From Megasphaera elsdenii DSM 20460 (lineage in GTDB: Bacteria > Bacillota > Negativicutes > Veillonellales > Megasphaeraceae), in contig NZ_CP027570.1 of assembly GCF_003010495.1 (NCBI RefSeq), positions 2,130,001-2,162,000 of the forward strand: a stretch of DNA of 32,000 nt, in the 5' to 3' direction. This document shows positions 4,672 through 25,647 of this stretch, in pieces. Below the pieces are notes generated by a model that saw only the letters and a list, made by a program, of their open reading frames with translations, made no database searches and was not told where the DNA came from. Position numbers and translations under genes: made by a program. How positions within the stretch are numbered: position 1 is the stretch's first letter; each line of letters starts with the position of its first letter.

Positions 4672-4705
4672 GGGCTGCACAGGGACCATCTCCCTGTGAC
4701 AGCCC
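4672..4705 (+). other. Strong hairpin between the amidase gene and mfd (weak terminator or mfd leader structure)
   Basis: GGGCTGCACAGGGA (4672-4685), loop CCATC, then TCCCTGTGACAGCCC (4691-4705). This gives 14 Watson-Crick pairs with one bulged A. It is followed by CAATTTGTC, which is a poor U tract. Confidence 0.45.
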
Positions 4706-4730
4706 CAATTTGTCATGAGGTAAAAATGAT

Positions 4731-7700: not shown

Positions 7701-8015
7701 GCCGACCGCTATGGCAAGCCGAGCCAGCCCGTAGAAAAACTCCTGCAGGTCACGGAAACGCGCCTCGATGCCAAGGCTCAGGGCCTGGTACTCATCGCCC
7801 AGAAGAAGGATGTCCTGGAATTGAAATGGCAGCGCGTCGCCGATATGCCGGACCTTCCCAACTTGGAACCGTCCCTGCGCCGCCGTTTCCGCCTGGTGCC
7901 CAATCTGCCCGTCATGGTCCGCGTCTCCCTGGCAGGGATTTCCGACGTCCTGGCCTTCATCCAGACCCTGCTGACGGCTTTTTCATCATTGAGAAAGGGG
8001 AATTCCCTTGAGTAA
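4731..8015 (+). CDS. mfd: Transcription-repair coupling factor
   Basis: The 1094 aa product has a UvrB-homology N-terminus, a CarD/TRCF RNAP-interaction region (DYVVHEVHGIGRYIG), helicase motifs GDVGFGKTEVAMRA and DEEQRFG, and a QLYQMRGRVGRS motif. Confidence 0.97.
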   Translation: MKQFFQWMNQDENIREAVTAFSQPGCHSIYGLSGSVKSALVAKALTERPGQAVLVVPSREQAASWRADLAFLAPDLPVLDFPVVDKAVFTTTAKSLDRTARQMEALGRLRQGDRLLILAAPEEAAQYVMAPQRIDAAAIDVAIHQEYDRDELLQYLVDAGYERVDLVERRGHFSVRGDIVDIYAVNEPQPLRLEFFGDELDSLRTFDVDSQKSQEQREKARILPISLTVQDDEKYTLLDYAEQGVIIWDEPNRVREGLKKILKESDDYKGRLASWKNLAGAERPGPQLILSLMAQSVPDMVVDTSASFAAKMMASFQKQFNLLEEEVDHWRSLGNTLLFVISSRDRRASLQAWMKQHELPFRDYDEAQSPAGGIYVVEGEIHDGFELPYAKVVVVAERDVFGTQKRRLRHHAAKGQEINVFTDLKPGDYVVHEVHGIGRYIGIKTIEMDGVHKDYLEIHYAGKDILYVPTDQLSLLQRYIGNEGDTPKLQKMGGSDWQKTRAKAQKSITDLAEKLVALYAKREVVQGYAFPPDTPFQKEFEEAFPYEETEDQLKAVRDIKASMERPTPMDCLVCGDVGFGKTEVAMRAIFKAVTAGKQVAVLVPTTVLSQQHFQTFMERFGPFGVHVDVLNRFRSYKEKKDILARTLTGDIDVLIGTHSLLNKKVKFKDLGLLVVDEEQRFGVAQKEKWKAWAANIDVLSLSATPIPRTLHMSLVNLREMCVIETPPTDRFPVQTYVTEYDARIVSDAIMREKRRGGQVFFVYNRVATIEKMKDQLQALLPDVTIGIAHGQMAGSLLESVMFDFYEGKYDVLLCSSLVENGLDVANANTIIIYDADHFGLSQLYQMRGRVGRSHRMAYAYFLYRRDKVLSEVAEKRLQAIKEFTELGSGFKIAMRDLEIRGAGNLLGREQHGNIASVGFAMYCHMLEDAIAKAQTGKDVAPPPPETVMEIHVDAFIDDDYIQNGGQKIEMYQRLAVLSSKEELAGLRQELADRYGKPSQPVEKLLQVTETRLDAKAQGLVLIAQKKDVLELKWQRVADMPDLPNLEPSLRRRFRLVPNLPVMVRVSLAGISDVLAFIQTLLTAFSSLRKGNSLE

Positions 8016-10671: not shown

Positions 10672-11133
10672 GTGGATTATTTAAAGGTCAGCCATGATTT
10701 CAGCGTGATAAACCAGCGTTCGCAAGCCTATGTGACCGAGGCCTGTCGGCCGTGGAAGTTATCTTATTCGGAACACGTGACCCTCATGAGCCTGTACAGC
10801 AACGACGGCTGCCGGCAGCATGAGCTCTGTCAGGTCATGAAGGCCGATAAGGCTTTGGTGGCCCGCAATCTGAAATTGTTGGAAGAGAAGGGGTTCGTCA
10901 GCCGCCGTCAGCAGGGCGATGACCGGCGCTATAAATATCTCTATTTGACGCCGAAGGCCCTGGATTTACAGGATACGATGGAGGGCATCCTCAAGCGATG
11001 GGTCGAGATTCTCGTCCGAGGTATCGACGAGGTGACGCTGGACAAGGCGTTCCAGCTTATGCATCAGGTGGCGGACAATGCCGTCGAGGCGGAAGTGGCT
11101 CCGCTGGATCCGCAGAAGGAGATGAAAGTATGA
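10672..11133 (+). CDS. MarR family transcriptional regulator
   Basis: A winged-HTH region is present: HVTLMSLYSNDGCRQHELCQVMKADKALVARNLKLLEEKGFVSRRQQGDDRRYKYLYLTPKA. The start is uncertain. GTG 10672 sits 9 nt after AAAGGGG; ATG 10663 directly abuts that SD; the track's TTG 10630 falls inside the operator at about +1 and is unlikely. Confidence 0.85.
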   Translation: MDYLKVSHDFSVINQRSQAYVTEACRPWKLSYSEHVTLMSLYSNDGCRQHELCQVMKADKALVARNLKLLEEKGFVSRRQQGDDRRYKYLYLTPKALDLQDTMEGILKRWVEILVRGIDEVTLDKAFQLMHQVADNAVEAEVAPLDPQKEMKV

Positions 11134-12221
11134 AAGCATATTGGAAATATACGGCTGCAGCCATGGCCGTCGTGGCAGCCCTCAGCCTGACAGGCTGCGG
11201 CCAGCAGACGCAGCAGGCCGAACAGCCCCAGCTGGTCAAGGCCATCCAGGTCGGCAGCGAAAGGGCGGGTACGACGGCTGGAACCTATTCGGGGACCGTC
11301 AAAGGCCGTTACCAGAGTAATCTGTCCTTCCAGGCCGGCGGCCGCATTACGGCCCGCAACGTCCAGCTCGGCTCGCAGGTCCATGCCGGCGACGTCTTGA
11401 TGACGGTCGATCCGAAGGATATTGCTCAGGCTGTCAACCAGACGCAGGCCAAGGTCGACGCTGCTGCTGCCCAGCTCCAGCTGGCCCAATCCAATTTGAA
11501 CCGCTATCAGCAATTATACAATATGGATGCCATCAGTGCGTCCGTCCTGGACCAGTACCAGACGGCCTACGACCAGGCTTCGGCCCAGTATAACCAGGCC
11601 CTGGCTGCTCAACAGGCTCAGGAAAACCAGTTGTCTTATACACAGCTCACGGCCGATGCCGACGGCGTCATTTCAGCCGTATCGGCCGAAGTCGGGCAGG
11701 TCGTCGCGGCCGGTCAGACTGTGGTCACCCTGGTTCATTCAGGGGACTTGGAAGTCCAGGTCAACGTGCCGGAAAATAAATTGGCCGATTTCCCGGTGGG
11801 CAAGAACGTGACCGTCACTTTCTGGGCCCTCCAGAACCAGCAGGCTGCCGGCGTCGTCCGCGAAGTGGCGCCCATGGCCGATGCAGCGTCGCGGACGTAC
11901 CAGGTCAATATTTCCCTGCCCAATCCGCCGGACGGCATGCAGCTCGGCATGACGGCTACCGTGGCTAACGGCAGTGAACAGGCAGTGGCTGAAGATACCT
12001 TCGTCCTGCCCTTGGCCGCTATCTACCAGACCGGCGACACACCCCAGGTCTGGGTCGTCGGGGAGGACAAGACTTTGTCCCTGAAAGATGTGACTGTCCA
12101 GGATTTTGGCGATAATAGCGTCAAGGTCACGGGTCTCAGCCGCGGCGATGTCGTCGTCACAGCCGGGGTCCATATGCTCAGTGAATGTCAAAAAGTCCGC
12201 GTAGAGGGGGAAGATGAATGA
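11130..12221 (+). CDS. Efflux RND transporter periplasmic adaptor subunit (lipoprotein)
   Basis: The product starts MKAYWKYTAAAMAVVAALSLTGCG (lipobox L-T-G-C). It has a coiled-coil segment (QAKVDAAAAQLQLAQSNLNRYQQLY) and a beta-barrel C-terminus typical of HlyD/AcrA-family adaptors. The ATG overlaps the marR stop (ATGA). The track's extension back to 10998 overlaps marR and was rejected. Confidence 0.9.
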   Translation: MKAYWKYTAAAMAVVAALSLTGCGQQTQQAEQPQLVKAIQVGSERAGTTAGTYSGTVKGRYQSNLSFQAGGRITARNVQLGSQVHAGDVLMTVDPKDIAQAVNQTQAKVDAAAAQLQLAQSNLNRYQQLYNMDAISASVLDQYQTAYDQASAQYNQALAAQQAQENQLSYTQLTADADGVISAVSAEVGQVVAAGQTVVTLVHSGDLEVQVNVPENKLADFPVGKNVTVTFWALQNQQAAGVVREVAPMADAASRTYQVNISLPNPPDGMQLGMTATVANGSEQAVAEDTFVLPLAAIYQTGDTPQVWVVGEDKTLSLKDVTVQDFGDNSVKVTGLSRGDVVVTAGVHMLSECQKVRVEGEDE

Positions 12222-15200
12222 AAAATTTATCGGAAGTCTCTATTCATAACCGCGTCCTCGTCTGGTACTTCATCATCCTCATCGCCATTGCCGGTATCTT
12301 TTCCTACATGAAACTGGGACGTATGGAAGACCCGACGTATACGGTGCGGACCATGGTCGTTTCCGTCGCCTGGCCGGGAGCTACGGCAGAACAGATGCAG
12401 GAACAGGTGACGGACAAGATCGAAAAGAAACTGCAAGATACGCCGAACCTGGATTATATCAAAAGTTATTCCCGGCCCGGCCAGTCGGTCATCTACGTCT
12501 ATCTCGACGACAAGGCGCCGCGCGACAGTATCCGCAGCACGTGGCATGAAGTCCGCAATCTGACGGAAGACATGAAGAAGGACCTGCCTGAAGGCGTCTA
12601 CGGCCCGTATTATAACGACCGCTTCGATGACGTCTACGGTTCTATCTATGCCGTCACCGGCGATGGTTATTCTTATGAAGAACTGCGCCAGAAGGCCGAA
12701 AAGATACGCCGCATGATGATGTCCGTCGACGATGTCAGCAAAGTCGAACTGGTCGGCGAACAATCGGAAAAGGTCTATATCGAAGTGGCTAATTCCAAAT
12801 TGGCCGAACTGGGCATTGCGCCGACGACCATTGCCGATGCCGTCAAAGGCCAGAACCAGATGACGCCGGCCGGTATGGTCGATACTCAGTCGGATAACGT
12901 CTACCTGCGCCTGTCCGGTGTCTTTGAAGACGTCGAAGCCATCCGCAACCTGCCTATCAATGCCAATGGCCGCGTCTTCCGCCTGGGTGACATCGCCACG
13001 GTCGAACGGCGCTATACGGAACCGGCAGACCCGAAGATGTTCTACAACGGCAAACCGGCCGTCGGCATCGCCTTGTCCATGAAGAGCGGCGGCAATAACC
13101 TGAAGCTCGGTGAAAACCTGAAGAAATTGCAGGAAAGCGTCAAATCCGATTTGCCGGCAGGCATGGAAATCCACCAGGTATCGGACCAGCCGCAGGTCGT
13201 CAAAGAGTCCATCAGCGATTTTACCAATACCCTGCGCGAAGCTATCATCATCGTCCTCGTCGTCAGCTTCCTCAGCCTGGGCCTGCGGACGGGCCTGGTC
13301 GTCGCTTTCTGTATCCCTCTGGTCCTGACCGGCGTCTTCTGCGTCATGGAAGTGGCCGGCATCGACTTGCATAAAGTCTCTTTGGGGTCCCTCATCATCG
13401 CCCTGGGCCTCCTCGTCGACGACGCCATCATTGCCGTCGAAATGATGACCGTCCAGCTGGAGAAGGGCATGAACCGCGTCGATGCGGCCTGCTATGCCTT
13501 CAAGGCAACAGCCAAGCCCATGCTGACGGGGACGCTCATCACTTGCTCCGGCTTCATCCCCGTCGCCTTTGCCGACGGGGCGGCGTCGGAATTTTGTAAA
13601 GATTTGTTCCCTGTCATTACGGCGGCCCTGGTCTTGTCGTGGATCGTATCGGTCATGGTGGCGCCGCTCTTCGGCTATTACCTGATCAAGCCCAAGGTTG
13701 CCCAAGGGACGGAGCCGGAACCGTTGTACCAGAGCCGGTTCTACGTCTTCTTCCGCAAGGTCCTGACCTGGTGCCTGACTCATCGGGCCCTGGTCATCGG
13801 CGGGACAGCGGCCATGTTCATCTTGTCTGTCGGCTTGATGAAACTCATTCCCCAGGAATTTTTCCCACCCTCTCTCAGACCGGAACTCATCGTTGAAATG
13901 ACCCTGCCTGAAGGCTCGTCCATGCAGGCGACGCAGAAAGAAGCGGCCCGCTTTGCCCAGTATCTCGACAGCCAGCAGGAAAAACTCAAGGATTATTCGT
14001 ATTACGTCGGAGAAGGGGCGCCGCGCTTCGTCCTGACCATCGAACCGGTCCTGCCGGCCAACAACTACGCTCAGTTCGTCGTCGTCGCCAAGGATACCCA
14101 GACGAGGGAAGAATTGACGCAGTCCATCAAAGAAGAAATGGCCGATAAGTTCCCCAACGTCCGCTGCAACGTCAAGAACGTGCCCTTAGGGCCGCCGTCG
14201 GATTATCCCATTATGCTGCGCGTATCCGGCTACGATACGGATAAGGTCAAAGCCTATGCCCAGCAGATTGCGGCGCGCATTGCCAAGGACCCGAATACGG
14301 AAAATGTCTTCCTCAACTGGGATCAGAAGAATAAGATCATGCACGTCGACCTGGACCAGAATAAATTGCGGGCCATGGGCATTTCCGGCGAAGATATTGC
14401 CAAGACCTTGTATACAGAACTGTCCGGGGCCACAGTCGCACAATACTACGCAGCCGACAAGACCATCGGTATCCAGCTGCGTCTTCAGGACAGCGACCGT
14501 AATGACCTGGCCAAAATCAAGAGCCTGCCTGTCTACGTAGGCCCGGCCGGTTATGTGCCGCTGGAACAGATTGCCAACGTTTCCTATAAAGGTGAAGATG
14601 GACTCATCTGGCGCCGCGATTTGAAGCCGACCATCACCATCAACGGCGGCATCAAGTCCGGTACGGCTAACGATGCGACGCAGAAAGCCTACGATTCTAT
14701 CGCCGATATCCGGGAAAGCATGCCCTTTGGCTATACCGTCGAAGTCGACGGGGCCCTGGAAAACAGCCAGAAATCCCTGAAATACCTGATGGTGCCCGTG
14801 CCTATCATGATCATCATCATTATGACCCTGCTCATGTTCCAGCTCCGCAGTCCGTCGCTCATGTTCCTGGCCCTGATTACGGCGCCCATGGGACTTATCG
14901 GCGTTTCCTGGGGGATGCTCCTCTTCGGGAAATCCCTGGGCTTCGTCGCCGACTTGGGCATCCTGGCCCTGGGCGGCATGATCATCCGCAACTCCATTAT
15001 CCTCCTGGACCAGATCCAGAAGCATATGGCTGCCGGTGAGGACCCGTGGCACGCCGTCATCGACTCGGCGGTCATGCGCTTCCGGCCCATCATGCTCACA
15101 GCCGCTGCGGCCATTTTAGGCATGATTCCCCTCATGCGCAGCGTCTTCTGGGGCCCCTTGGCCGTTGCCATTGCCAGCGGCCTCTTCGTCGCCACCGTCC

Positions 15201-15262
15201 TGACCCTGCTGGTCCTGCCGACGATGTACGCTGCCTGGTTCAAAGTAAAAAGAACGAGCTAG
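12218..15262 (+). CDS. RND efflux permease (AcrB/HAE1 family)
   Basis: The 1014 aa product has 12-TM architecture with two large periplasmic loops. The N-terminus NRVLVWYFIILIAIAGIFSY and the ALGLLVDDAIIAVE motif are typical of AcrB-type pumps. The start overlaps the adaptor stop (ATGA). Confidence 0.95.
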   Translation: MKNLSEVSIHNRVLVWYFIILIAIAGIFSYMKLGRMEDPTYTVRTMVVSVAWPGATAEQMQEQVTDKIEKKLQDTPNLDYIKSYSRPGQSVIYVYLDDKAPRDSIRSTWHEVRNLTEDMKKDLPEGVYGPYYNDRFDDVYGSIYAVTGDGYSYEELRQKAEKIRRMMMSVDDVSKVELVGEQSEKVYIEVANSKLAELGIAPTTIADAVKGQNQMTPAGMVDTQSDNVYLRLSGVFEDVEAIRNLPINANGRVFRLGDIATVERRYTEPADPKMFYNGKPAVGIALSMKSGGNNLKLGENLKKLQESVKSDLPAGMEIHQVSDQPQVVKESISDFTNTLREAIIIVLVVSFLSLGLRTGLVVAFCIPLVLTGVFCVMEVAGIDLHKVSLGSLIIALGLLVDDAIIAVEMMTVQLEKGMNRVDAACYAFKATAKPMLTGTLITCSGFIPVAFADGAASEFCKDLFPVITAALVLSWIVSVMVAPLFGYYLIKPKVAQGTEPEPLYQSRFYVFFRKVLTWCLTHRALVIGGTAAMFILSVGLMKLIPQEFFPPSLRPELIVEMTLPEGSSMQATQKEAARFAQYLDSQQEKLKDYSYYVGEGAPRFVLTIEPVLPANNYAQFVVVAKDTQTREELTQSIKEEMADKFPNVRCNVKNVPLGPPSDYPIMLRVSGYDTDKVKAYAQQIAARIAKDPNTENVFLNWDQKNKIMHVDLDQNKLRAMGISGEDIAKTLYTELSGATVAQYYAADKTIGIQLRLQDSDRNDLAKIKSLPVYVGPAGYVPLEQIANVSYKGEDGLIWRRDLKPTITINGGIKSGTANDATQKAYDSIADIRESMPFGYTVEVDGALENSQKSLKYLMVPVPIMIIIIMTLLMFQLRSPSLMFLALITAPMGLIGVSWGMLLFGKSLGFVADLGILALGGMIIRNSIILLDQIQKHMAAGEDPWHAVIDSAVMRFRPIMLTAAAAILGMIPLMRSVFWGPLAVAIASGLFVATVLTLLVLPTMYAAWFKVKRTS

Positions 15263-15406: not shown

Positions 15407-15470
15407 ACAAGTATGATATTGCTTTAAGTATAGGCCATAGTGAATGTAAGAAAAAAAGGAGATGTCTATT

Positions 15471-16211
15471 ATGAGGAAGAAAGTATTAGGTCTTGCTTGT
15501 GCCATGATGATGACGGCGTTCCTGACGGCTTGCGGTATCAGTGATATTACGGGTAAGTCAAGTTCATCTGGTAATCTGAGTCAGAAAAAGCTCACGAATC
15601 CGACCGTATCTGCGTCGGTAGTCCATCACCCCCAGGGAAACCCGCATAAGATTCTCATTGCCTATTTTACGTATCCGGAAAATACGGATGCCAAGGCCAT
15701 TCATTCGGATAAGTACGACGTCATGAGTTCAGCCAGCCTGAAAGTCAAGGATGGCGTCGCTGTTGGCAATAATACGGTTATTGCTGATTATATCGCCAAC
15801 CAGACTGGCGGCGATTTATTCTCTATCCTGACGGAAAATCCCTATCCGACGAGTTATGAAGAAACTGTCGACCAAGGCAAGGCGGAAATTCAGAATCAGG
15901 AACTGCCTGCTTTGAAGAGTCATGTCGATGACCTCAGCGGCTACGATACGATTATCTTAGTTTATCCAAACTGGTGGAGCACCTTGCCAGCGCCGGTACA
16001 GTCGTTCCTGAAGGAAACGGATATGTCAGGAAAACAGGTCTACGCTATCGTCACATCCGGTGGCAGTGGGTTCTCCGACACCATCCAGAACATCCAGCAG
16101 ACTGAACCGGGGGCTTCGGTCCACGAAGGATTTGCCCTGCATCATAAGGACATGGATAAAGCTGAAGAAATGACCCAGCATTGGCTGAATCAAATGGGGT
16201 TCACACAGTAA
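15471..16211 (+). CDS. Flavodoxin-fold lipoprotein (Flavodoxin_4-like), paralogue 1
   Basis: The product starts MRKKVLGLACAMMMTAFLTACG (lipobox L-T-A-C) and contains ILIAYFTYPENTD, YDTIILVYPNWWSTLPAPVQSFL and GKQVYAIVTSGGSGF. I preferred the ATG at 15471 (AAAGGAG SD 9 nt upstream) over the ATG at 15462, which abuts the SD. Confidence 0.85.
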   Translation: MRKKVLGLACAMMMTAFLTACGISDITGKSSSSGNLSQKKLTNPTVSASVVHHPQGNPHKILIAYFTYPENTDAKAIHSDKYDVMSSASLKVKDGVAVGNNTVIADYIANQTGGDLFSILTENPYPTSYEETVDQGKAEIQNQELPALKSHVDDLSGYDTIILVYPNWWSTLPAPVQSFLKETDMSGKQVYAIVTSGGSGFSDTIQNIQQTEPGASVHEGFALHHKDMDKAEEMTQHWLNQMGFTQ

Positions 16212-16230: not shown

Positions 16231-16956
16231 ATGAAATTGGTAAAAATCATGCGAGTTGTTTTCTTAGGGGCGGCTATGTTCCTGCTGACGGCCTGCGGCG
16301 AAACGGGAACTTCCGTGCAGAGCACGTCGGAAAATACAGCGTCGGCACCGGCTTCCGGCGTCTATGTGCCCAATCAGACGGGCAAGCCTATGTCGGAAGA
16401 CATCAAAGATGAATTGGAAAGCAAACATAAACAGGAAGCAGCTGCCATCAAGACCATCCAGGAAGAACCGAAGGGCAGCCATAAAGGCCAGCGCATCCTT
16501 ATCGCCTATTTCACCTGGGGCGGCCGGTCTGGTGAAGTGGCCCATATGATACAGGACAAAATCGGCGGTGACCTCTATGAAATCAAGCGCGACCCCGATT
16601 ACTCCCGCGATTACTCGACGGTCCTCAAAGAATCGGCGCAGGAAGTTGATGAAAATGTCCATCCCCAATTAGCCGGCACACAGCCCGACCTGTCGCAGTA
16701 CGATGTCATCGTCCTCGGCTATCCCTGCTGGTGGTTCACGGCGCCCATGACCATTCCGTCGTTCCTGGAAGGGAAAGATTTGGCAGGGAAACTCATCGTG
16801 CCCTACATGTGTTCCTATAGCAGCCCCTTTGAAGTCACCTTGCCGGCTCTGGCTGCCGCAGCTCCCGGTGCCCGCCTCTTTACGGGTCTGACCCTGGATA
16901 AAGATACGGATTACAGCGTCATCGATCCCTGGCTGGATAAGGCCGGATTGTTATAA
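16231..16956 (+). CDS. Flavodoxin-fold lipoprotein (Flavodoxin_4-like), paralogue 2
   Basis: The product starts MKLVKIMRVVFLGAAMFLLTACG (lipobox L-T-A-C) and contains ILIAYFTWGGRSGEVA, YDVIVLGYPCWWFTAPMTIPSFL and GKLIVPYMC. A GGAGGG SD lies 6 nt upstream. Confidence 0.85.
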   Translation: MKLVKIMRVVFLGAAMFLLTACGETGTSVQSTSENTASAPASGVYVPNQTGKPMSEDIKDELESKHKQEAAAIKTIQEEPKGSHKGQRILIAYFTWGGRSGEVAHMIQDKIGGDLYEIKRDPDYSRDYSTVLKESAQEVDENVHPQLAGTQPDLSQYDVIVLGYPCWWFTAPMTIPSFLEGKDLAGKLIVPYMCSYSSPFEVTLPALAAAAPGARLFTGLTLDKDTDYSVIDPWLDKAGLL

Positions 16957-16972: not shown

Positions 16973-18358
16973 ATGAGTCACGATATCAGCCGGCGGACTT
17001 TTTTGAAGCTCCTCGGCGGGGGACTGGCTGGGGCAGCTGCTGGCGGGGCTTTGGTGAAGCGCGAGGATATCCTGGCTTTTCTCGATGCCGATAAGGCTGC
17101 CGGGGCAGCCGGAACGGCCTTGGGAAAAGTCACGACGCGCTACTATAAGCCCCTCGGGAAAGACTTGTCTCTCCTGGGCTTTGGCTGCATGCGCCTGCCG
17201 ACGACCTTTACAGCGTCGGGCCGGGAAATAGATAAGGAATTAGGCGAGAAGATGGTCGATTTTGCCTATCGCCACGGCATCAATTATTTTGATACGGCCT
17301 GGTTCTACCACGACGGGAAGTCCGAAGCCTTCATCGGCCAGGCCTTGCAGAAATATCCCCGCGACACAGTCTATCTGGCCGACAAGATGCCGACGCCCAT
17401 CTTGACGGGACTCGATCAGGCAAAGGATATCTTCCAGACCCAGCTCGACCGCTGCCAAGTTGCGTATTTCGACAACTACATGCTTCATTCCCTGACCAGT
17501 CAGGACCAGTTCGATGAACTTTACATCCAAGACGGCATCCTGGACTACCTTCGCCAGGAAAAAGCCCGGGGCCGCATCCGTTGCCTGGGCTTTTCCTTCC
17601 ACGGTGACGTGCCCTTCTTTCATTATCTCCTGGACCAGTATGATTGGGATTTCTGCATGATCCAGCTCAACTATGCCGACTGGAACGAACCGGGCGAAGC
17701 GCCGGCAGGGAGCCGCCAGGCCGGGGACCTGTACCGCAAGTGCCGAGAAAAGGATGTCCCCATTTTCGTCATGGAACCGGTCAAAGGGGGCAACCTGGCC
17801 AATCTGTCATCGTCGGCAGAAGCCATCTTGAAGCAGCAGCGGCCAGAGGCCAGCATGGCGTCGTGGGCCCTGCGCTGGGTCGGCTCTAAAGAAGGGGTCA
17901 TCACCATGAATTCAGGCATGAGCAATTTGGAACAGGTCCTGGACAATATCCGGACCCTGAGCAATTTTCAGCCCTTATCGGCCGCCGAAGAGCGGGCTAT
18001 CCAGCGCTCCCTGGGGAAGGAAGCCGGCAGCGGGGCCATTCCCTGTACCTATTGCCGTTACTGTGAACCCTGCCCCTACGGTGTCGACATCGCCGGAGTC
18101 TTTCATATCTACAACCGTTATGGCGAACCGGCCGGAATCGACGTGGACCATCCCCAAGGGGCCTCGGCAGCACAGGAGAAAGTCTTCCTGGCCCATTATC
18201 AGAATAACCTGGAACGGCCGCAGCGCGCTTCCCACTGTACAGCCTGCGGCCGCTGTCTGCCCAAGTGTCCGCAGCATATCGACATCCCTAAGTACGTGCG
18301 GGCCATTGATGATGTTGTCCAATATTTCGGGCGCGATACAGGAAAGGGGATAGTGTAA
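16973..18358 (+). CDS. Aldo/keto reductase with a C-terminal Fe-S domain and an N-terminal twin-arginine signal
   Basis: The N-terminus MSHDISRRTFLKLLGGGLAGAAAGGA matches the Tat consensus S-R-R-x-F-L-K plus an h-region. AKR tetrad contexts are present: YFDTAWFYHDG (Asp, Tyr), YLADKM (Lys) and YMLHS (His). The C-terminus has CTYCRYCEPCP (CX2CX2CX2CP) and CTACGRCLPKCP (CX2CX2CX3CP). A GGAGGA SD lies 6 nt upstream. Confidence 0.9.
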   Translation: MSHDISRRTFLKLLGGGLAGAAAGGALVKREDILAFLDADKAAGAAGTALGKVTTRYYKPLGKDLSLLGFGCMRLPTTFTASGREIDKELGEKMVDFAYRHGINYFDTAWFYHDGKSEAFIGQALQKYPRDTVYLADKMPTPILTGLDQAKDIFQTQLDRCQVAYFDNYMLHSLTSQDQFDELYIQDGILDYLRQEKARGRIRCLGFSFHGDVPFFHYLLDQYDWDFCMIQLNYADWNEPGEAPAGSRQAGDLYRKCREKDVPIFVMEPVKGGNLANLSSSAEAILKQQRPEASMASWALRWVGSKEGVITMNSGMSNLEQVLDNIRTLSNFQPLSAAEERAIQRSLGKEAGSGAIPCTYCRYCEPCPYGVDIAGVFHIYNRYGEPAGIDVDHPQGASAAQEKVFLAHYQNNLERPQRASHCTACGRCLPKCPQHIDIPKYVRAIDDVVQYFGRDTGKGIV

Positions 18359-19816
18359 ATGCGGAACATGCTGCAACGGGGACGCATCGTTTTATCGTGG
18401 CTCCTGATGGGGGCCATGGTCCTGACCTTTGCTGGTATCGTAGCACCCGTGCTGCCGCAATGGCAGGTCCTGCCGGCTCTCTTGGCTGGGAATCTCCTGG
18501 TCATCGCCGTCATCATCGTCCTGACCCTGCTCCTGGGACGGATCTATTGCAGCGTCCTCTGTCCCTTGGGAATCAGCCAGGACTTCGTCTTCTGGCTGGC
18601 CAAACGGCGCAAAAAGAATCGCCGGAAATTTACTTTCCGGCGGGAACGGCGCATCGTGCGCTATAGTATCTTGATGTTGACCGGTCTGGCTTTCCTGGCC
18701 GGCTTGTCTGGTTTTGTGGGGCTGGTCGACCCGTACAGTATCTTTGGCCGCATCGTCCACGATGGACTGGGCCTGCCAGTTGCCTATGGCTGGAACGCTT
18801 TGGTCGGGGTCAACGAAAGCCACGGCTGGATTCCGGTGCTGAGCAAGACGGATATCCTCTGGCCGCCGCTGGCTGCCATGGCCCTGGCCGGGGTTTATTT
18901 CGTCGTCCTGACTGTCCTGGCCTGGCGCTATGGCCGAGCGTACTGCCATACTGTTTGCCCTGTCGGCACGCTGTTGGGAACCCTCAGCCGCTTCAGCCTG
19001 TTCCGGCCGGTCATCGACGGATCGCGCTGCACCCACTGCGGGGCCTGTGAAAAGACGTGCCGTTCGTCCTGCATCGACGTCGCCCATGGCTTCGTCGATA
19101 CCAGCCGCTGCGTCGACTGCTTCGACTGCGTTGCCGTCTGTCCGAAAGGGGCCTTAACCTTTTCCCGGACCCTTCCGGTCAAGCTTCCGGAAAAAAAGCT
19201 ATCTGGTGAAGGTATCAGCCGACGGGAGATGCTGCTGACGACGGCCGTTGCCGCCGGGACCATCGCCGCAGGTCTGGCCCGCAGCCAGACCGTTGTTCCA
19301 GCCTTGATGGGGACGGGGAAGGGGAAGAAGAAAATCTTGCCGCCTGGGGCCGTTTCAGCCGATGCTTTTGCTCAGCGCTGTACGGCCTGCCATCTCTGTG
19401 TCAGCCGCTGTCCCAGCGGCGTCCTGGTGCCGGCCGTCTTGGAGAACGGCGCCTTGCAGATGGGCCAGCCCTACATGGATTTTTCTAAAGGCTACTGTGT
19501 CTATAACTGCAACTTTTGTTCTCAAGCCTGCCCGGCCGGTGCCATCCGTCCGCTGGAGCTGGCCGTGAAAGAAAAGACAAAAATCGGCATCGCCCGTTAT
19601 GCCCAATTCCACTGTCTCATCGCCCGCGACGGCATAGTCTGCGGTAACTGTGCCCGCCATTGTCCCGTCCAGGCCATTACCCTGGTCGAGAACAAGGACG
19701 GGCGCAGCTACCCGCACGTCGATGGGGCGCGCTGTATCGGCTGCGGTTCCTGCGAGTATCACTGTCCGGCCAAACCGGCAGCTATTTCCGTCAGCACCTT
19801 GCCGAAATCTTCGTGA
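18359..19816 (+). CDS. Membrane polyferredoxin: NapH/MauN-like 4-TM module fused to a NapG/MauM-like module through an RR-preceded fifth TM segment
   Basis: Four hydrophobic segments are present, with CSVLCP (aa 64-69) and CHTVCP (aa 196-201) CX3CP motifs. Next come CTHCGACEKTC and CVDCFDCVAVCP. Then SRREMLLTTAVAAGTIAAGLA (aa 287-307) and ILPPGA. These are followed by CTACHLCVSRCP, CNFCSQACP, CGNCARHCP and CIGCGSCEYHCP. The ATG immediately follows the AKR stop. Confidence 0.85.
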   Translation: MRNMLQRGRIVLSWLLMGAMVLTFAGIVAPVLPQWQVLPALLAGNLLVIAVIIVLTLLLGRIYCSVLCPLGISQDFVFWLAKRRKKNRRKFTFRRERRIVRYSILMLTGLAFLAGLSGFVGLVDPYSIFGRIVHDGLGLPVAYGWNALVGVNESHGWIPVLSKTDILWPPLAAMALAGVYFVVLTVLAWRYGRAYCHTVCPVGTLLGTLSRFSLFRPVIDGSRCTHCGACEKTCRSSCIDVAHGFVDTSRCVDCFDCVAVCPKGALTFSRTLPVKLPEKKLSGEGISRREMLLTTAVAAGTIAAGLARSQTVVPALMGTGKGKKKILPPGAVSADAFAQRCTACHLCVSRCPSGVLVPAVLENGALQMGQPYMDFSKGYCVYNCNFCSQACPAGAIRPLELAVKEKTKIGIARYAQFHCLIARDGIVCGNCARHCPVQAITLVENKDGRSYPHVDGARCIGCGSCEYHCPAKPAAISVSTLPKSS

Positions 19817-19818
19817 CT

Positions 19819-20274
19819 TCAGTCTTCCGGGTCGGTGGCGATATCCGGTTCGTTCTTGCGGTTGAAGCCGATGATGCGGCGCGGCTTTTCAATGTCGTCG
19901 TGGCGGGGGACGGCGACGAGGAGCAGGTTGAGCTGGGAAATATGCTGGACCAGTTCGACGGCCGATCCGTCGGACAATTCGCCGTAAAAGACGATCATGT
20001 TCGGATCCCAGTAGCCGATATCCTGGATGCTGAAGGTGATATCGCCAGCTGATACCAGGCGGCCGCCGGCCTGCATGTCGTCGGGCAGGCCCGACTCAAA
20101 GTTGTTGATCAGGGCGACGATGCGCTGATACATGTCTGAGGCCAGGTAGGGCGCTTCCGGATCTTCGTCTTCTTCTGGAACGGCGCCGGGCTGGAGGATC
20201 GTCAGTTCCTTTTCGGCTTCCGCGTCTTTTTCGGGAGTTCCTTGTTGTTTTTTCTTATCCATTACGTCTGCCAT
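19819..20274 (-). CDS. Hypothetical acidic protein (151 aa)
   Basis: The ATG at 20274 has a GGAGGG SD 6 nt upstream. The composition looks coding, unlike the + strand ORF 19660..20052. I recognise no family. The stop lies 2 bp from the convergent stop at 19816. Confidence 0.7.
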   Translation of the reverse strand: MADVMDKKKQQGTPEKDAEAEKELTILQPGAVPEEDEDPEAPYLASDMYQRIVALINNFESGLPDDMQAGGRLVSAGDITFSIQDIGYWDPNMIVFYGELSDGSAVELVQHISQLNLLLVAVPRHDDIEKPRRIIGFNRKNEPDIATDPED

Positions 20275-20451: not shown

Positions 20452-21702
20452 ATGGAATATGTGAACGAGTTGGACACTATATCGGCCAGAGCTGCGCAAA
20501 AGGATGCGGCTCTCAAGGTACATCGTCTTACGTTTATGGAGGCTACGATGATGGTCGTCGGGTCTACCATAGGTTCCGGTGTTTTAGGTTTAGCTTTTGC
20601 CAGTCGCAATGCCGGCTGGCCTGTCCTGCTTACGTGGCTTGTCGTAGCAGGCTTTTTTTCTATCATCTCCATGCTCTATGTCGCTGAAGCGACGCTGCGG
20701 ACGACGAAGCCCTTGCAGCTGTCGGGCCTGGCAGAAAAGTACGTCGGCAAAATCGGTTCCTGGCTGATTTTCTTTTCCGTCGGGGCCACGTCTTTTTGCA
20801 GCCTTATCGCTTACACCAGCGGCTGCGGCAGGATATTGAGCGAATTTTTCGGTATTTCCCTGGAAATGGCCAGCTGCCTCTTTGCCCTCGGGGCGACGAG
20901 CGTCGTCTGGCTGGGCCTCAAGGCTACTGGGGTCGCTGAGAAATATTTGAGTTCAGGTATGACGGCCATGCTTATTCTTCTCGTCGGCGCGTCACTGTTT
21001 TCGGCCCGCGTACCTGTCGCAGATATTCTCTACGCCCATTGGACCTATGCCGTTCCGGTCTTCAATATCGCCGTCTTCTGCTATGCCGTCCAGTATATCG
21101 TTCCGGAAATCTCCCGGGGCTTCACGCATGACCCGGGGAAAATCGTCCCGTCCATCCTGGCCGGGGCCGGCATTTCCTTCGTCATCCTGGCTTTGGTCCC
21201 CTTGGCGGTCTTCCTCATGCTGCCAGTCGATGAAATTTCGGAAGTCGCCTCCCTGTCCTGGGGCCGTGCCCTGGGATCTCCGGTCTTCTTCGTCATCGTC
21301 AACGCTTTCGCTTTCTGTGCCATGCTCACATCGTTCTGGGCCATTGCCGAAAGCTTCTTGACCAATATGATCGACCGCCTGGGCTTTAAATCGGAAACGG
21401 ACATCCGTACGCGAGCCGGCTGCCTGGCCTTCATCGTCATCCCGCCAGTCCTCTTGGCTTACAGCGGCCTCGTCGGTTTCGTCAACGCCATCTTCAGCGC
21501 CGGCACCTTCGGCGGCATCATCATGTCCATCCTGCCCGTCTTCATGCTGCGCAGCGCCCGTAAACACGGCGACCACGCACCGTGCTGGAGATGCGGCTGG
21601 ATCGCTCACCCCATCATGCAGTTCCTCGTCGTCGTACTCTTTGCCAGTGCCGGCATCTACGCCATCTTTAGCCTATGCGGCTGGCTGCCTGCGGCGTGGT
21701 AG
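20452..21702 (+). CDS. Amino acid permease, Trp/Tyr (HAAAP) family-like
   Basis: The 416 aa polytopic protein contains TFMEATMMVVGSTIGSGVLGLAFASRNAGW...MLYVAEATL, which resembles the first TM pair of Mtr/TyrP/TnaB-type carriers. Substrate specificity cannot be read from the sequence. Confidence 0.8.
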   Translation: MEYVNELDTISARAAQKDAALKVHRLTFMEATMMVVGSTIGSGVLGLAFASRNAGWPVLLTWLVVAGFFSIISMLYVAEATLRTTKPLQLSGLAEKYVGKIGSWLIFFSVGATSFCSLIAYTSGCGRILSEFFGISLEMASCLFALGATSVVWLGLKATGVAEKYLSSGMTAMLILLVGASLFSARVPVADILYAHWTYAVPVFNIAVFCYAVQYIVPEISRGFTHDPGKIVPSILAGAGISFVILALVPLAVFLMLPVDEISEVASLSWGRALGSPVFFVIVNAFAFCAMLTSFWAIAESFLTNMIDRLGFKSETDIRTRAGCLAFIVIPPVLLAYSGLVGFVNAIFSAGTFGGIIMSILPVFMLRSARKHGDHAPCWRCGWIAHPIMQFLVVVLFASAGIYAIFSLCGWLPAAW

Positions 21703-21754: not shown

Positions 21755-21881
21755 TGTATCCCCACTGGGGAAAAACTGAAAATTTTTACAAAAAATATAC
21801 ATACATATGGTGACTTTCATGTATAATAAGGAGAGTATCAACTAGACAGCAACTATACCGTCAAGAAAAGTGGGGAGAATA

Positions 21882-23426
21882 ATGGAAAAACAAACCCGGA
21901 ATGTTTTCGGTATCATCCATATCGGGACGGTCAACATGACCTTGAAGGTCATTGCTTATTCGTCTTTGGACGACATGGAAATCATCGAAAATGTATCCCG
22001 AGAAGTGAAATATGGGGAAACGGTATTCCAGCGCCATCATGTCAGTTTTCAGTCTTTGAATGAAATCTGTCAGGTCCTGCTGGGGTTCCGCCAGCTCCTT
22101 CGCGATTACGATGTCAAGGATGTCCGAGTCTTGTCGACGACGGCTATTTGTGAGGCCGATAATTTGATCAATGTCCTCGACCAGATCCATATCCGCACGG
22201 GCTTCGATGTCGAAGTCATCCATATGACCAAGGAAATCTACTACAAGTTCTTTGGCCTTTATTATAATGTATTGAAAGGGAACTTTAATTTTGCCGATAA
22301 GGCCGTTATGCTCCTGGATATCACGTCCGGCGGCGTCGGCTTGACGTGCTGGAAGTCGGACCGCCTCTTGTTCCAGCAGAATATCCATATCGGTTCCTTG
22401 CGGATCCTGGAAAATTTCACGGAAAAGCAGCGCAATGAATTGACGTTCCCGACGGCCGTGCGCGAATATATTTACGGGACTCTCTATCCGCTCTGGAAGG
22501 GCGTCCAGCGGTATGATATCAAGTACATCGTCTTGTCCGGCCGCGGGGCCAATCTGGTGTCGCGCCTCATGGGCAAGACCAGTGAGAACGGGTTGTTCCT
22601 GATTACGCCCGATGAGCTGCGCCAGTTCGTCTATTCTTTTAAAGGCGTCACGCCGTTCAAGCTCATGCAGCGCTTCGGCCTGTCCCAGAACCTGGCCAAT
22701 GTCATCATGCCGACGATCCTCTTGTATTATGAACTGCTGCGCATCGTCGACATCGACATGCTGGTCGTCATGCCGACGACCTTCACCGAAGGCTATACCA
22801 TGTACTATGTAGCCGATAAGACCCATAATGATTATATGGCCCATCTCCAGGGCCTGCTCCTGGACATGATGCGCCGCATGGCCAAGAAGTATTTGTCCGA
22901 CTCCGCCCATTCCGCCCGCATCGAAGAATACGGCAACGTCCTCTTCCAGGCGCTGTACCAGTTCATCGGCCTCGATTACAGTTATAATTATCTGCTCCGC
23001 CTGGCCGCTATCTTCCACGAAACGGGGAAATTCATCAATATCCGCAAGCATAATCTTTGTACATACAACCTCATCATGGAAACGGACCTCTTCGGCCTGG
23101 CTGACGATGAAAAGGAAATCCTGGCGGCCGTCCTCTACTATGCCTTCGACGGCACCCTGCAGGAGGCATCACCGGTCTACCATGCCCTGACGCCGCGTCA
23201 GAAGGTCATTACGGCCAAACTGACGGCTATTTTCCGCCTGGCCGATTCCCTGGATAAGAGCCATTTGGGGAAAATCAGCGCCATCCGGGCTGAGCTCAAG
23301 GACGACCGACTCGTCGTCTCCTATACGGCAGAAGCCGATATTTCCCTGGAACGCTGGACATATCTGAAAATGGCCGTCGACTTTGCCGAAGTCTTTGGTA
23401 TTTCGACGGAATTAGTGAAAGGATAG
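21882..23426 (+). CDS. ppx: Ppx/GppA family exopolyphosphatase
   Basis: It has an N-terminal ASKHA-fold segment (FGIIHIGTVNMTLKVI, LLDITSGGVGLT) and a C-terminal HD-like segment (LRLAAIFHETGKFINIRKHNLCTYNLI). I preferred the ATG at 21882 (GGGGAG SD) over the track's GTG at 21870. It lies directly upstream of ppk. Confidence 0.88.
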   Translation: MEKQTRNVFGIIHIGTVNMTLKVIAYSSLDDMEIIENVSREVKYGETVFQRHHVSFQSLNEICQVLLGFRQLLRDYDVKDVRVLSTTAICEADNLINVLDQIHIRTGFDVEVIHMTKEIYYKFFGLYYNVLKGNFNFADKAVMLLDITSGGVGLTCWKSDRLLFQQNIHIGSLRILENFTEKQRNELTFPTAVREYIYGTLYPLWKGVQRYDIKYIVLSGRGANLVSRLMGKTSENGLFLITPDELRQFVYSFKGVTPFKLMQRFGLSQNLANVIMPTILLYYELLRIVDIDMLVVMPTTFTEGYTMYYVADKTHNDYMAHLQGLLLDMMRRMAKKYLSDSAHSARIEEYGNVLFQALYQFIGLDYSYNYLLRLAAIFHETGKFINIRKHNLCTYNLIMETDLFGLADDEKEILAAVLYYAFDGTLQEASPVYHALTPRQKVITAKLTAIFRLADSLDKSHLGKISAIRAELKDDRLVVSYTAEADISLERWTYLKMAVDFAEVFGISTELVKG

Positions 23427-23433
23427 GATAATC

Positions 23434-25590
23434 ATGGCAGATTTTACGAGTAGTCAATATTTTTTAAATCGTGAATGTACATGGGTCAAATTCAATGAAC
23501 GGGTCCTGCGCGAAGCCATCGTCCCGTCCAATCCACTGCTGGAACAGCTGAACTTCGTCGCCATTGCCGCGTCGAACCTGGACGAATTTTTCATGATCCG
23601 CGTGGCCGGCGTCAAGCACCTCGTCGAAAGCGGCGTCAAGCACATCGATATCGCCGGCATGACGCCGCAGGAACAGTTCGATGCCATCCAGGAAATGGTC
23701 CATAAACTGGTCGACGACCAGTACCGCTATTATGGCGATATCCAGCAGAAACTGCAAGCCCACGGCCTGCATTTCATTCGTGTCGACGCTCTCGATGATG
23801 ACCAGCGGCTGTGGCTGGAAAGCTTTTTTGAACGGGAAATCTATCCCGTCGTCACGCCCATGGCTGTCGATTCCAGCCATCCTTTTCCGTTCCTGGCCAG
23901 TCTGAACCTGAACCTGGCCGTCCTCTTGCGCCGCAAGCAGGGGGACCGTTCCGTCAAGACGGCTATCCTGCCGGTTCCGACGTCGGTCATCGACCGCATC
24001 ATCAAGGTCCCGGACAGCGTTTCCCCGGCCGGAAAACAGCATGACGGCCAGCAGTTCCTCTTCCTGGAAGATGTCATCGCCGCCTATGCGGAACGCTTCT
24101 TCCTGGGCTGCGACATCCTGGAAGTCGCACCGTTCCGCATCACCCGCGACGCTGACCTGGATATCGACGACGATGCCGAGGACCTTTTGATGGAAGTGGA
24201 AAAGAGCTTGAAGAAGCGCCGCAAAGGGGCGGCTGTCCGCCTGGAACTGGCGTCGACGGCGAGCCGCATAATCCGCGACTTCCTGCGTGACGAATTGCAG
24301 CTCGAAGAACGGGATGTGTATGCCATCCCCGGTCCGCTGGACTGCAAGGTCTTTTTCTCCTTCGTCGGCATCGACGGCTATGATGACCTGCGCTATCCGC
24401 CGGTGACGCCGCAGCCGTCGTCGGAACTGGCTGCCATCGACGCGCCTGATTTCTGGTCGGCCATTGCCGAACGGGACGTCATGGTCCATCATCCTTACGA
24501 AACCTTTGAAACGGTGGAACACTTCATCCAGCTGGCGGCGACGGACCCGGATGTCCTGGCCATCAAGCAGACTTTGTACCGCGTCAGCAGCAAGTCGCCG
24601 ATCATCGCAGCCCTGGCCCAGGCGGCAGAAAATGGCAAGCAGGTCACGGTCCTCATGGAAGTCAAGGCCCGTTTCGATGAAGAAAATAATATCCACATGG
24701 CCCGCAAGCTGGAAAAAGCCGGCTGCCATGTCATTTACGGCATCATGGGCCTCAAGACCCACTCCAAGATTACCCTCGTCGTCCGCCGTGAAGAAGATGG
24801 CATCCGCCGTTACGTCCACCTGGCGACGGGCAACTACAACGGCAAGACGGCCCGTATCTATACGGATGTCGGCATCTTGACGGCCAATACCCTCATCGGC
24901 GTCGATGCGTCGGCTTTCTTCAATCTCCTGTCGGGTTATTCCGATCCGCCTCAGTGGAATAAACTGGCCGTCGCGCCGCTCAATCTGAGGGAAACGATTT
25001 ATCAGGAGATCGACCAGGAAATCGCCCAGGCCAAGGCCGGCAAGAAAGCCCTCATCGTGGCCAAGATGAATTCTCTCCTCGATAAATACGTCATTGCCAA
25101 GCTCTATGAAGCGTCGGCAGCCGGCGTCAAGATCCGCCTCATCGTCCGCGGCATCTGCGTCATCCGCCCGGGTCTGCCCGGCATCAGCGAAAACATCGAA
25201 GTCCACAGCATCGTCGGCCGCTTCCTGGAACACAGCCGCCTGTTCTACTTCTATAACGGCGGCAAGGAAGACGTCTTCATTTCGTCGGCTGACTGGATGC
25301 CGCGCAACCTCAATGAACGCGTCGAATTGATGACGCCCGTCGAATTTCCGCCGCATAAAGAACGGATCAAGCGTATCCTGAAAGTATATTTCGACGACAA
25401 TGTCAAGGCCTATGCCATGAACAGCGACGGTTCGTACCGCTACCTGGCAGACGAACGCCAGGGCAAGCCTGTCAACGCCCAGGATACATGCCAGCGCCAG
25501 GCTGAACGGCTGGCATCGGAACGGAAGAAGGCGGCACGCCAGTTCCGCAAGGTCGTCCTGCGTCCACGTCCTGCTGAAGAAGACAAGTAA
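23434..25590 (+). CDS. ppk: Polyphosphate kinase 1
   Basis: The 718 aa product starts FLNRECTWVKFNERVLREA, followed by NLDEFFMIRV, both typical PPK1 N-terminal motifs. It also has PLD-like C-domains (GLKTHSKITLVVRRE, GRFLEHSRLFYF). Confidence 0.97.
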   Translation: MADFTSSQYFLNRECTWVKFNERVLREAIVPSNPLLEQLNFVAIAASNLDEFFMIRVAGVKHLVESGVKHIDIAGMTPQEQFDAIQEMVHKLVDDQYRYYGDIQQKLQAHGLHFIRVDALDDDQRLWLESFFEREIYPVVTPMAVDSSHPFPFLASLNLNLAVLLRRKQGDRSVKTAILPVPTSVIDRIIKVPDSVSPAGKQHDGQQFLFLEDVIAAYAERFFLGCDILEVAPFRITRDADLDIDDDAEDLLMEVEKSLKKRRKGAAVRLELASTASRIIRDFLRDELQLEERDVYAIPGPLDCKVFFSFVGIDGYDDLRYPPVTPQPSSELAAIDAPDFWSAIAERDVMVHHPYETFETVEHFIQLAATDPDVLAIKQTLYRVSSKSPIIAALAQAAENGKQVTVLMEVKARFDEENNIHMARKLEKAGCHVIYGIMGLKTHSKITLVVRREEDGIRRYVHLATGNYNGKTARIYTDVGILTANTLIGVDASAFFNLLSGYSDPPQWNKLAVAPLNLRETIYQEIDQEIAQAKAGKKALIVAKMNSLLDKYVIAKLYEASAAGVKIRLIVRGICVIRPGLPGISENIEVHSIVGRFLEHSRLFYFYNGGKEDVFISSADWMPRNLNERVELMTPVEFPPHKERIKRILKVYFDDNVKAYAMNSDGSYRYLADERQGKPVNAQDTCQRQAERLASERKKAARQFRKVVLRPRPAEEDK

Positions 25591-25591
25591 A

Positions 25592-25620
25592 TTGACAAGC
25601 CTGCCGGTCTTTGCTAAAAT
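25592..25620 (+). promoter_or_regulatory. Near-consensus sigma-70 promoter of the YabE-like gene
   Basis: TTGACA (25592-25597), a 17 nt spacer, then TGcTAAAAT (25612-25620). An AGGAGG SD follows at 25636-25641. Confidence 0.7.
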
Positions 25621-25647
25621 GAAAAGAAAAGCTTTAGGAGGCATGGC

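Follow-up and report, generated by a model that had tools for sequence, protein, structure and literature searches.

A Tat-signalled iron-sulphur aldo/keto reductase of Megasphaera elsdenii as a probable client of a NapGH-like membrane polyferredoxin

In the textbook view, aldo/keto reductases (AKRs) are soluble and depend on NAD(P)H, so how might one of them work on the far side of the cytoplasmic membrane, and where would its electrons come from? The question is raised by a 32,000-nucleotide stretch of Megasphaera elsdenii DSM 20460 (contig NZ_CP027570.1, positions 2,130,001 to 2,162,000; hereafter the window), which encodes an AKR with an N-terminal twin-arginine translocation (Tat) signal and a C-terminal Cys-rich domain, directly followed by a gene for a polytopic polyferredoxin (Table 1). 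Our answer is that the AKR probably does the catalysis in a periplasmic redox module of two genes and is coupled there to the polyferredoxin. Comparative genomics strongly supports both its export and its partnership with the polyferredoxin. The pair closes a block of four genes that begins with two flavodoxin-like lipoproteins. All four products are exact matches to public M. elsdenii records bearing only generic names: WP_014016759.1 is an "aldo/keto reductase", WP_014016758.1 a "4Fe-4S dicluster domain-containing protein", and the other two are labelled "flavodoxin" or hypothetical. A search of NCBIfam profiles assigned the AKR to no specific family. There are 1349 near-identical Megasphaera sequences of this protein, and the iron-sulphur (Fe-S) AKR family as a whole comprises 836 clusters at 50% identity (E ≤ 1e-30).

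The reading frame of the AKR opens at the first in-frame start past a stop, with AGGAGG 7 nt upstream. Six further in-frame start codons lie within the first 80 codons, and none has a Shine-Dalgarno sequence. An earlier reading of this DNA, made from its letters alone (the sequence-only reading), had allowed that the true start might lie downstream of the twin-arginine motif. Such a later start can be ruled out, because the Shine-Dalgarno sequence occurs at codon 1 only and the N-terminus is conserved as protein; the motif is kept in the long-form homologues, and the N-terminus is therefore translated and under selection. The same reading had pointed to SRRTFLK followed by a Gly/Ala-rich h-region, and this is borne out: the motif occupies residues 6–12, and the N-terminus scores 21.2 bits with TIGR01409, the NCBI hidden Markov model (HMM) for Tat signals, against a cutoff of 16.7. 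With a mean Kyte-Doolittle hydropathy of 1.51 the h-region is weakly hydrophobic, and a basic pair comes next. The motif, generalised as [ST]RR[TQDE][AF][LI]K, is kept in homologues of about 440–480 residues down to about 35% identity, in Negativicutes, Bacteroidales, Desulfovibrionaceae, Myxococcota and Elusimicrobia, while the short homologues (about 375–395 residues) begin right at the first barrel strand. On this pattern of conservation, the predicted Tat signal of the AKR is genuine.

The manner of anchoring appears to differ between lineages. Most Bacteroidales versions carry a lipobox after the h-region and are thus Tat lipoproteins. Inspection of the Megasphaera-type N-terminus revealed neither an AxA cleavage site nor a lipobox; here the h-region gives way to a basic residue, which is conserved, and a helix of the pattern "ILxFLDxD". 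In the AlphaFold2 model, residues 1–26 have low pLDDT (predicted local distance difference test) scores and are disordered, and the helix at residues 30–45 is confident. A possible explanation is that the Megasphaera-type signal serves as an uncleaved signal-anchor. As expected from the general view that Fe-S AKRs are mostly cytoplasmic, few homologues extend over the N-terminal signal, about 20 among the top 150 cluster representatives (50% identity).

There is little doubt about the fold. The barrel is recognised by Pfam PF00248 (Aldo_ket_red) with an E-value of 2e-34 and 119.4 bits against a cutoff of 24, and the AlphaFold2 model, built on 114 homologues, has a mean pLDDT of 90.6. The best Foldseek match is AKR11C1 (1ynp; E 9e-16, TM-score 0.78), and the top 50 matches are all classical AKRs. 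The catalytic contexts named in the sequence-only reading are right, with D107 in FDTA, Y112 in WFYHDG, K138 in ADKM and H172 in MLHS. This Asp-Tyr-Lys-His tetrad is invariant in the 114 homologues and aligns with those of AKR1B1 and AKR11C1. The Protein Data Bank contains no solved structure that joins an AKR barrel to an Fe-S domain, and none of NapGH.

The two C-terminal Cys clusters that had been noted from the sequence are both present and their eight Cys are invariant across the 114 homologues, cytoplasmic members included, but the spacing of the first has to be corrected. It reads CX2CX2CX2CP (C358, C361, C364, C367, P368; region 18041-18076 of the window), which is non-canonical, and the second is the canonical CX2CX2CX3CP (C422, C425, C428, C432, P433). 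Pfam Fer4_9, Fer4_8 and Fer4_18 all match just above threshold (30 bits against a cutoff of 27). In most homologues the two motifs are separated by 49–55 residues, the gap being much shorter in classical dicluster ferredoxins. The invariant dicluster motifs fit a protein that would take up its cofactor in the cytoplasm and hence be exported in folded form.

The partner gene follows without a single intergenic base, the TAA of the AKR being followed at once by the ATG of the polyferredoxin. NCBIfam models place a NapH-like half at residues 168–271 and a NapG-like half at 286–478. Transmembrane (TM) segments are found at residues 10–28, 41–59, 99–117 and 171–189, and the loop between the second and third is strongly basic, as expected for a cytoplasmic loop. 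Two CX3CP motifs lie at 64 and 196, two 4Fe-4S-type motifs at 224 and 251 in the NapH-like half, and four more at 341, 380, 419 and 459 in the NapG-like half. Between the halves lies an internal motif of the S-R-R-x-F-L type (residues 287–292; SRREML in Megasphaera), whose arginine pair is kept in 48 of 52 polyferredoxin homologues. The segment after it is weakly hydrophobic, falling under the Kyte-Doolittle threshold of 1.5 that detects TM1–4, and in alignment it corresponds to the signal region at the N-terminus of NapG. We predict that this fifth transmembrane domain (TMD) is Tat-dependent and places the NapG-like half outside the membrane. The sequence-only reading had proposed a neighbouring polyferredoxin as the electron source, and a multi-cluster Fe-S protein does adjoin the AKR; it is, however, not soluble but a polytopic NapH-NapG fusion with its NapG-like half predicted to be periplasmic.

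Dual Sec-Tat insertion of just such a five-TMD NapH-NapG architecture has been shown experimentally (Tooke et al., 2017; PMC5449189). That work concerned biogenesis only and gave the polyferredoxin family no function or partner. The protein of the delta proteobacterium MLMS-1 (Q1NSB0; PMC5449189) resembles that of Megasphaera in having five TMDs, a twin-arginine motif before a weak TMD5 and Fe-S clusters on both sides, a likeness of described architecture; the published alignment (PMC5449189) does include a polyferredoxin homologue from a Negativicute. The equivalog scores are missed by a wide margin (NapG 89.5 bits against 269, NapH 60.7 against 234), and neither napA nor napB was found near the polyferredoxin gene. 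The protein is therefore probably NapGH-like in its working and not a component of Nap. In one locus, from a relative with 59% identity (L002), the polyferredoxin is split into NapH-like (188 aa) and NapG-like (229 aa) genes. There, a 506-aa Fer4 protein with an [FeFe]-hydrogenase large-subunit domain (Fe_hyd_lg_C) is encoded directly upstream of akr (4353-8873), and this hydrogenase-like protein is a possible electron donor.

The partnership itself rests on gene linkage across genomes. We gathered 93 loci by looking up exact proteins and by scanning a single genome for each species, and tabulated 88 non-redundant Fe-S AKR genes for covariation, counting genes on the same strand as adjacent and leaving contig ends out of the non-adjacent class. 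The suggestion that the Tat signal would covary with the polyferredoxin gene was confirmed: Tat or Tat-lipoprotein forms adjoin a polyferredoxin gene at 47 loci and do not at 10, and the signal-less forms adjoin one at none and lack one at 18. A rough neighbour-joining tree implies three or more changes of Tat state, and each Tat clade has loci with an adjacent polyferredoxin. The pair is found in Prevotella, Bacteroides, Alistipes, Phocaeicola, Selenomonas, Desulfovibrionaceae and metagenome-assembled genomes of Elusimicrobia, in the order akr-pfd (pfd, polyferredoxin) in Negativicutes, Desulfovibrionaceae and Elusimicrobia and pfd-akr in Bacteroidales. A 524-aa downstream gene without a Pfam entry at one locus (L009) is also the polyferredoxin.

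A reciprocal scan was made from the polyferredoxin side, over metagenome contigs with 78 non-redundant loci. An Fe-S AKR gene is adjacent in 48 of the 78, and in 23 of the 78 a DUF362 protein with a Tat signal is encoded immediately upstream of the polyferredoxin instead of the AKR; the rest are cut by contig ends. The polyferredoxin thus consistently serves a Tat-exported client, of which the AKR is the commonest. The DUF362 arrangement is a module of its own, exemplified by L099 (2070-5518), in which a five-TM ECF-like gene and a small phosphoribosyltransferase-domain protein precede DUF362 and the polyferredoxin. The DUF362 protein of this type passes Pfam TAT_signal, and the DUF362 and AKR versions never occur in one locus.

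The export machinery can also be part of the cluster. Both tatA and tatC lie inside it in 15 of the first 93 loci, all 15 with a Tat-form AKR, which suggests that the AKR and polyferredoxin are major Tat clients in some Bacteroidales. Examples of such arrangements are tatA-tatC-pfd-akr in Prevotella sp. ne3005 (L039, 3538-7389) and pfd-akr-TM1506-5TM-tatA-tatC in Bacteroides sp. Marseille-P3684 (L057, 4421-9326).

Taken together, these observations lead us to the following model. The AKR would fold in the cytoplasm and gain its two Fe-S clusters there, probably along with a non-exchangeable NAD(P), before leaving in folded form through the Tat pathway. It would then stay attached to the outside of the cytoplasmic membrane, probably through the uncleaved signal-anchor in Megasphaera and through a lipid anchor in Bacteroidales, where it would dock onto the periplasmic NapG-like domain of the polyferredoxin. 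The latter, inserted by Sec and Tat together, would carry four Fe-S clusters facing the periplasm and a further two to three facing the cytoplasm and act as a wire from an electron pool (quinol, or reduced ferredoxin or flavodoxin) to the clusters of the AKR. The barrel, with its intact Asp-Tyr-Lys-His tetrad, would reduce a periplasmic carbonyl or oxidise the matching alcohol or aldose. The two flavodoxin-like lipoproteins of M. elsdenii would be lineage-specific extras of the operon. Standard potentials favour the oxidation of alcohols or aldoses with quinone as acceptor. Alternatively, in a fermenter with plentiful reduced ferredoxin and flavodoxin, low-potential electrons could enter the cytoplasmic clusters of the NapH-like half and drive reduction.

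Several points weigh against this model. Tat forms without an adjacent polyferredoxin were found at 10 loci, the Fisher test of the association between Tat signal and adjacency (p = 1.4e-10) ignores phylogeny, and the count of Tat clades rests on a rough tree. The first Cys motif is spaced non-canonically, as it is in 107 of the 114 sequences. Neither tatA nor tatC was found in the 32-kb window. Energetically, ordinary aldehydes and ketones (about −200 mV) are not readily reduced by menaquinol (about −74 mV), and quinol-driven carbonyl reduction would therefore be uphill, which casts doubt on either the direction or the donor; with the NapG and NapH scores below the equivalog cutoffs, quinol oxidation by the polyferredoxin cannot be assumed either. 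No flavin domain stands between the one-electron clusters and a two-electron nicotinamide in the module, and we know of no precedent for an Fe-S chain that passes single electrons to a hydride cofactor without a flavin.

How the barrel might receive electrons depends on its dinucleotide site, for which the family was aligned with AKR11C1 and with AKR1B1. In the alignment with AKR1B1, S208 and Q231 (the latter kept in 102 of 114) correspond to S159 and Q183, which contact the nicotinamide carboxamide; P269 corresponds to P211 in the β7 loop near the pyrophosphate; G315, S/T317 and Q/H321 fall in the K262-R268 region of the β8/α8 segment; and D/E324-N325 match E271-N272 at the adenosine end. Exported members (n = 89) do not differ from cytoplasmic ones (n = 25) at these positions, so the move to the periplasm came without loss of the dinucleotide signature. 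The comparison with characterised AKRs, which the sequence-only reading had called for, thus shows the contact positions largely retained but the aromatic residue that stacks on the nicotinamide replaced by an invariant Met267. The neighbouring Ser is replaced by an invariant Glu268, and H210, N233, R74, P76 and W225 are further invariants specific to the family. For the β8/α8 cofactor motif the closest match is Kv-beta (AKR6), with LLGASNAEQLMENI against NSGMSNLEQVLDNI in the Megasphaera protein. Kv-beta binds NADPH very tightly; unlike the AKR studied here it is eukaryotic, cytoplasmic and devoid of an Fe-S domain. Since exported and cytoplasmic forms share the signature equally, the cofactor paradox that had been proposed for this protein is real, and either the protein already holds NAD(P) when it is exported or the Fe-S clusters drive its chemistry. 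Equal retention fits the former, with NAD(P) binding itself a prediction.

Pre-loading has a precedent in the glucose-fructose oxidoreductase of Zymomonas mobilis, which is Tat-exported with bound NADP, and the AKR could work in the same way: NAD(P)(H) loaded before export and tightly held would support a ping-pong or redox-neutral reaction in the periplasm, with the Fe-S domain and the polyferredoxin serving only to poise, regulate or slowly recharge the cofactor. We consider this possible, if not favoured. It accords with the dinucleotide contacts kept alike on both sides of the membrane. It also accords with the TM1506/DUF1893 genes that stand beside Fe-S AKR genes at about 20 loci (Pfam E 1.3e-48), together with a five-TM ECF-S-like gene; the operon of TM1506 with AKR has been noted before, and binding of NAD or ADP-ribose by TM1506 was inferred (Iyer et al., 2011; PMC3239186). 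TM1506 could be an accessory for loading or sensing the cofactor. Such genes (for example L057, 7359-8311, and L011, 6223-7180) accompany exported and cytoplasmic AKRs alike, one signal-less form included. Neither TM1506 nor the five-TM gene is present in the Megasphaera window, which counts against such a pre-loaded enzyme here, as do Met267 and Glu268 in place of the stacking aromatic and the Ser. A predicted chain of ten clusters (six in the polyferredoxin, two in the AKR and the CX3CP pair) would be needless if the cofactor merely cycled between two substrates, yet the linkage is near-obligate. The Zymomonas enzyme itself differs from the AKR in having a Rossmann fold, no Fe-S clusters and no membrane partner.

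The opposite solution, which we regard as unlikely, does away with nicotinamide: the clusters would give single electrons to the substrate or to another cofactor in the old pocket, and the tetrad would move protons only. Such an enzyme would resemble IspG, which combines a barrel with a [4Fe-4S] domain, and to our knowledge the periplasm contains no pyridine nucleotides. The Fe-S domain is universal in the family, cytoplasmic members among them, and, judging by domain order, it comes straight after the point at which classical AKRs have a C-terminal loop that closes over the active site; the family-specific invariants H210, N233, M267, E268, R74, P76 and W225 lie at or next to cofactor positions. 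We know of no AKR with cluster-driven chemistry, however, and D/E324-N325, invariant or nearly so, has no known role beyond dinucleotide binding. A wider proposal, which we make tentatively, is that Fe-S AKRs are a class of AKR fed by Fe-S clusters and not by free NAD(P)H, and that the exported forms with their polyferredoxin act as a hitherto unrecognised periplasmic reductase or dehydrogenase of respiratory type, common among gut Bacteroidales and Negativicutes.

A third explanation denies export altogether, treating the twin arginines as a relic or as part of a membrane-targeting helix, with the AKR on the cytoplasmic face docked on the NapH-like clusters and using free NAD(P)H. Pfam TAT_signal scores the N-terminus below threshold (10.3 bits against 22.7), there is no evident signal-peptidase site, and tat genes were not seen in the window; but TIGR01409 is passed, many orthologues have a lipobox right after the h-region that would be meaningful only outside the cytoplasm, tatA and tatC are embedded in the cluster at 15 loci, and signal-less members never adjoin the polyferredoxin, so that we judge this explanation improbable. 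Likewise improbable, lastly, is that the Cys motifs bind zinc or are purely structural and the linkage reflects co-regulation and not electron transfer, for although the C-terminal module has been called a "rubredoxin-like zinc ribbon" (Iyer et al., 2011; PMC3239186), and although the spacing of the first motif is atypical and the Fer4 HMM cutoffs are exceeded by only 3 bits, both motifs have the Pro-ended CX2CX2C...CP pattern of dicluster ferredoxins, several Fer4 models pass, and a zinc ribbon would explain neither the Tat dependence nor the near-obligate Fe-S partner.

We return to the exported, polyferredoxin-coupled module. Among its nearest analogues is NapGH of E. coli and Wolinella succinogenes, in which NapH spans the membrane four times and has CX3CP motifs as well as 4Fe-4S clusters in the cytoplasm, NapG is a Tat-dependent periplasmic protein with four clusters, and the pair feeds a Tat-exported periplasmic enzyme. 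In Megasphaera, by contrast, a single fusion protein takes the place of NapH and NapG and serves an AKR and not a molybdoenzyme, there is no NapC or cytochrome, and the scores lie far below equivalog level. MsrPQ is comparable as a Tat-exported periplasmic reductase on a dedicated membrane conduit, although MsrQ is a haem/flavin protein. The cytoplasmic Fe-S AKRs (COG1453-type, about 375–395 aa) have the same barrel, invariant tetrad and two Cys motifs, at 41–49% identity to the Megasphaera protein; they differ in lacking a signal peptide and in never adjoining a polyferredoxin (0 of 18). The NapH-like extracytosolic systems of Méheust et al. (2021; PMC8238504) are defined by ApbE flavinylation and FMN-binding domains, and no AKR partners are mentioned. 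They likewise reuse a conduit in modular fashion with different enzymes, whereas the Megasphaera module is without ApbE or FMN-binding features. Our literature searches on Tat-exported AKRs, Fe-S AKRs, COG1453 function and AKRs with NapGH found nothing relevant. Each part taken singly is of a known kind, be it AKR barrel, dicluster domain, Tat signal or NapGH-like dual Sec-Tat polyferredoxin; their combination, an exported Fe-S AKR as a dedicated polyferredoxin client across phyla that is sometimes clustered with tatA and tatC, appears undescribed.

The remaining two genes of the block encode the flavodoxins that the sequence-only reading had offered as further donors. Two are indeed present, the second ending 16 nt short of the AKR gene, but both are Sec-type lipoproteins and so extracytoplasmic too, and of the first 93 loci only about 8 have such flavodoxins next to the pair, which rules them out as obligate partners. 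From their lipoboxes it follows that all four products of the block are membrane-bound or extracytoplasmic, and from their Sec-type signals that FMN would be acquired outside the cytoplasm. The nearest solved structures to the second are the uncharacterised "putative flavoproteins" 4ICI, 3KLB and 4J8P. A Flavodoxin_4 homologue beside akr-pfd in Desulfovibrionaceae (L022, 5092-5832) bears a twin-arginine motif (MTRRTWLQGAAGM), and this version may be Tat-exported with its flavin, to judge from that motif.

Other contexts of the AKR gene vary. A tandem or nearby second Fe-S AKR paralogue occurs at four loci (L080, 5992-8772; L022, 2199-6948; L038, 5977-8547; L066, 2010-4549), with both copies Tat-signalled in L080 and L022. 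These Tat-signalled paralogues suggest several substrate specificities on one polyferredoxin. In L007 (1-5004), two proteins of more than 1100 aa with a hydrazine-synthase-alpha middle domain and beta-propeller repeats are encoded directly upstream of akr-pfd, the gene for the second overlapping the akr start codon. A role in polysaccharide utilisation in Bacteroidales was hinted at by the first two contexts and then dropped, since most loci have pfd-akr with TM1506, five-TM or tat genes and not with glycoside hydrolases.

The flanking genes look unrelated to the redox module (Table 1). The RND efflux genes just upstream of the block fit Megasphaera as a diderm Firmicute, and the long minus-strand antisense frames over the flanks (for example 21861-23051 and 23464-25644) look like frame artefacts. 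A scan of the whole window against Rfam yielded no riboswitch or RNA element reaching the gathering score. Promoter and terminator predictions do not rise above background, though they are compatible with an operon of all four genes that begins near 15378.

Table 1. Positions in the window of the redox block, its domains and the flanking genes.
Feature	Position	Strand	Basis or remark
Tat-signal Fe-S aldo/keto reductase gene (461 aa; M. elsdenii WP_014016759.1)	16973..18358	+	Open reading frame, Shine-Dalgarno, Pfam AKR and Fer4, exact public match
Predicted twin-arginine signal, residues 1-28 (R7-R8 at nt 16991-16996; h-region FLKLLGGGLAGAAAGGALV, then K29-R30)	16973..17056	+	TIGR01409, conservation
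AKR (alpha/beta)8 barrel, residues 68-344 (D107/Y112/K138/H172)	17174..18004	+	Pfam PF00248, Foldseek, invariant tetrad
Cys-rich domain, residues 357-437, two predicted [4Fe-4S] clusters	18041..18283	+	Pfam Fer4 models, invariant Cys
Polytopic polyferredoxin, NapH-NapG fusion (485 aa; WP_014016758.1)	18359..19816	+	NCBIfam NapH/NapG, TM segments, Fe-S motifs
Internal twin-arginine motif S287-R288-R289-E-M-L and Ala-rich fifth TM segment	19217..19279	+	Arginine-pair conservation, alignment with NapG
Flavodoxin_4-family lipoprotein 1 (249 aa), Sec-type lipobox FLTAC/G (slash, cleavage site)	15462..16211	+	Pfam PF12682 E 9e-20; NCBIfam PRK06934 E 2e-43
Flavodoxin_4-family lipoprotein 2 (241 aa), Sec-type lipobox LLTAC/G	16231..16956	+	Pfam PF12682 E 2.5e-25
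RND efflux pair	10998-15262	+	Just upstream of block
DUF6173, convergent	19819-20274	-	Flanking gene
Trp/Tyr-permease-family transporter	20452-21702	+	Flanking gene
Ppx/GppA phosphatase and polyphosphate kinase	21870-25590	+	Flanking genes

If the AKR is indeed an exported, membrane-wired Fe-S enzyme, it would widen the known chemistry or cofactor handling of its superfamily and would be the first functional partner for the dual Sec-Tat polyferredoxin family. The module is abundant and could make up a sizeable unannotated part of the redox metabolism of gut and rumen anaerobes, and in some Bacteroidales it may be a principal reason for which the Tat pathway is retained.

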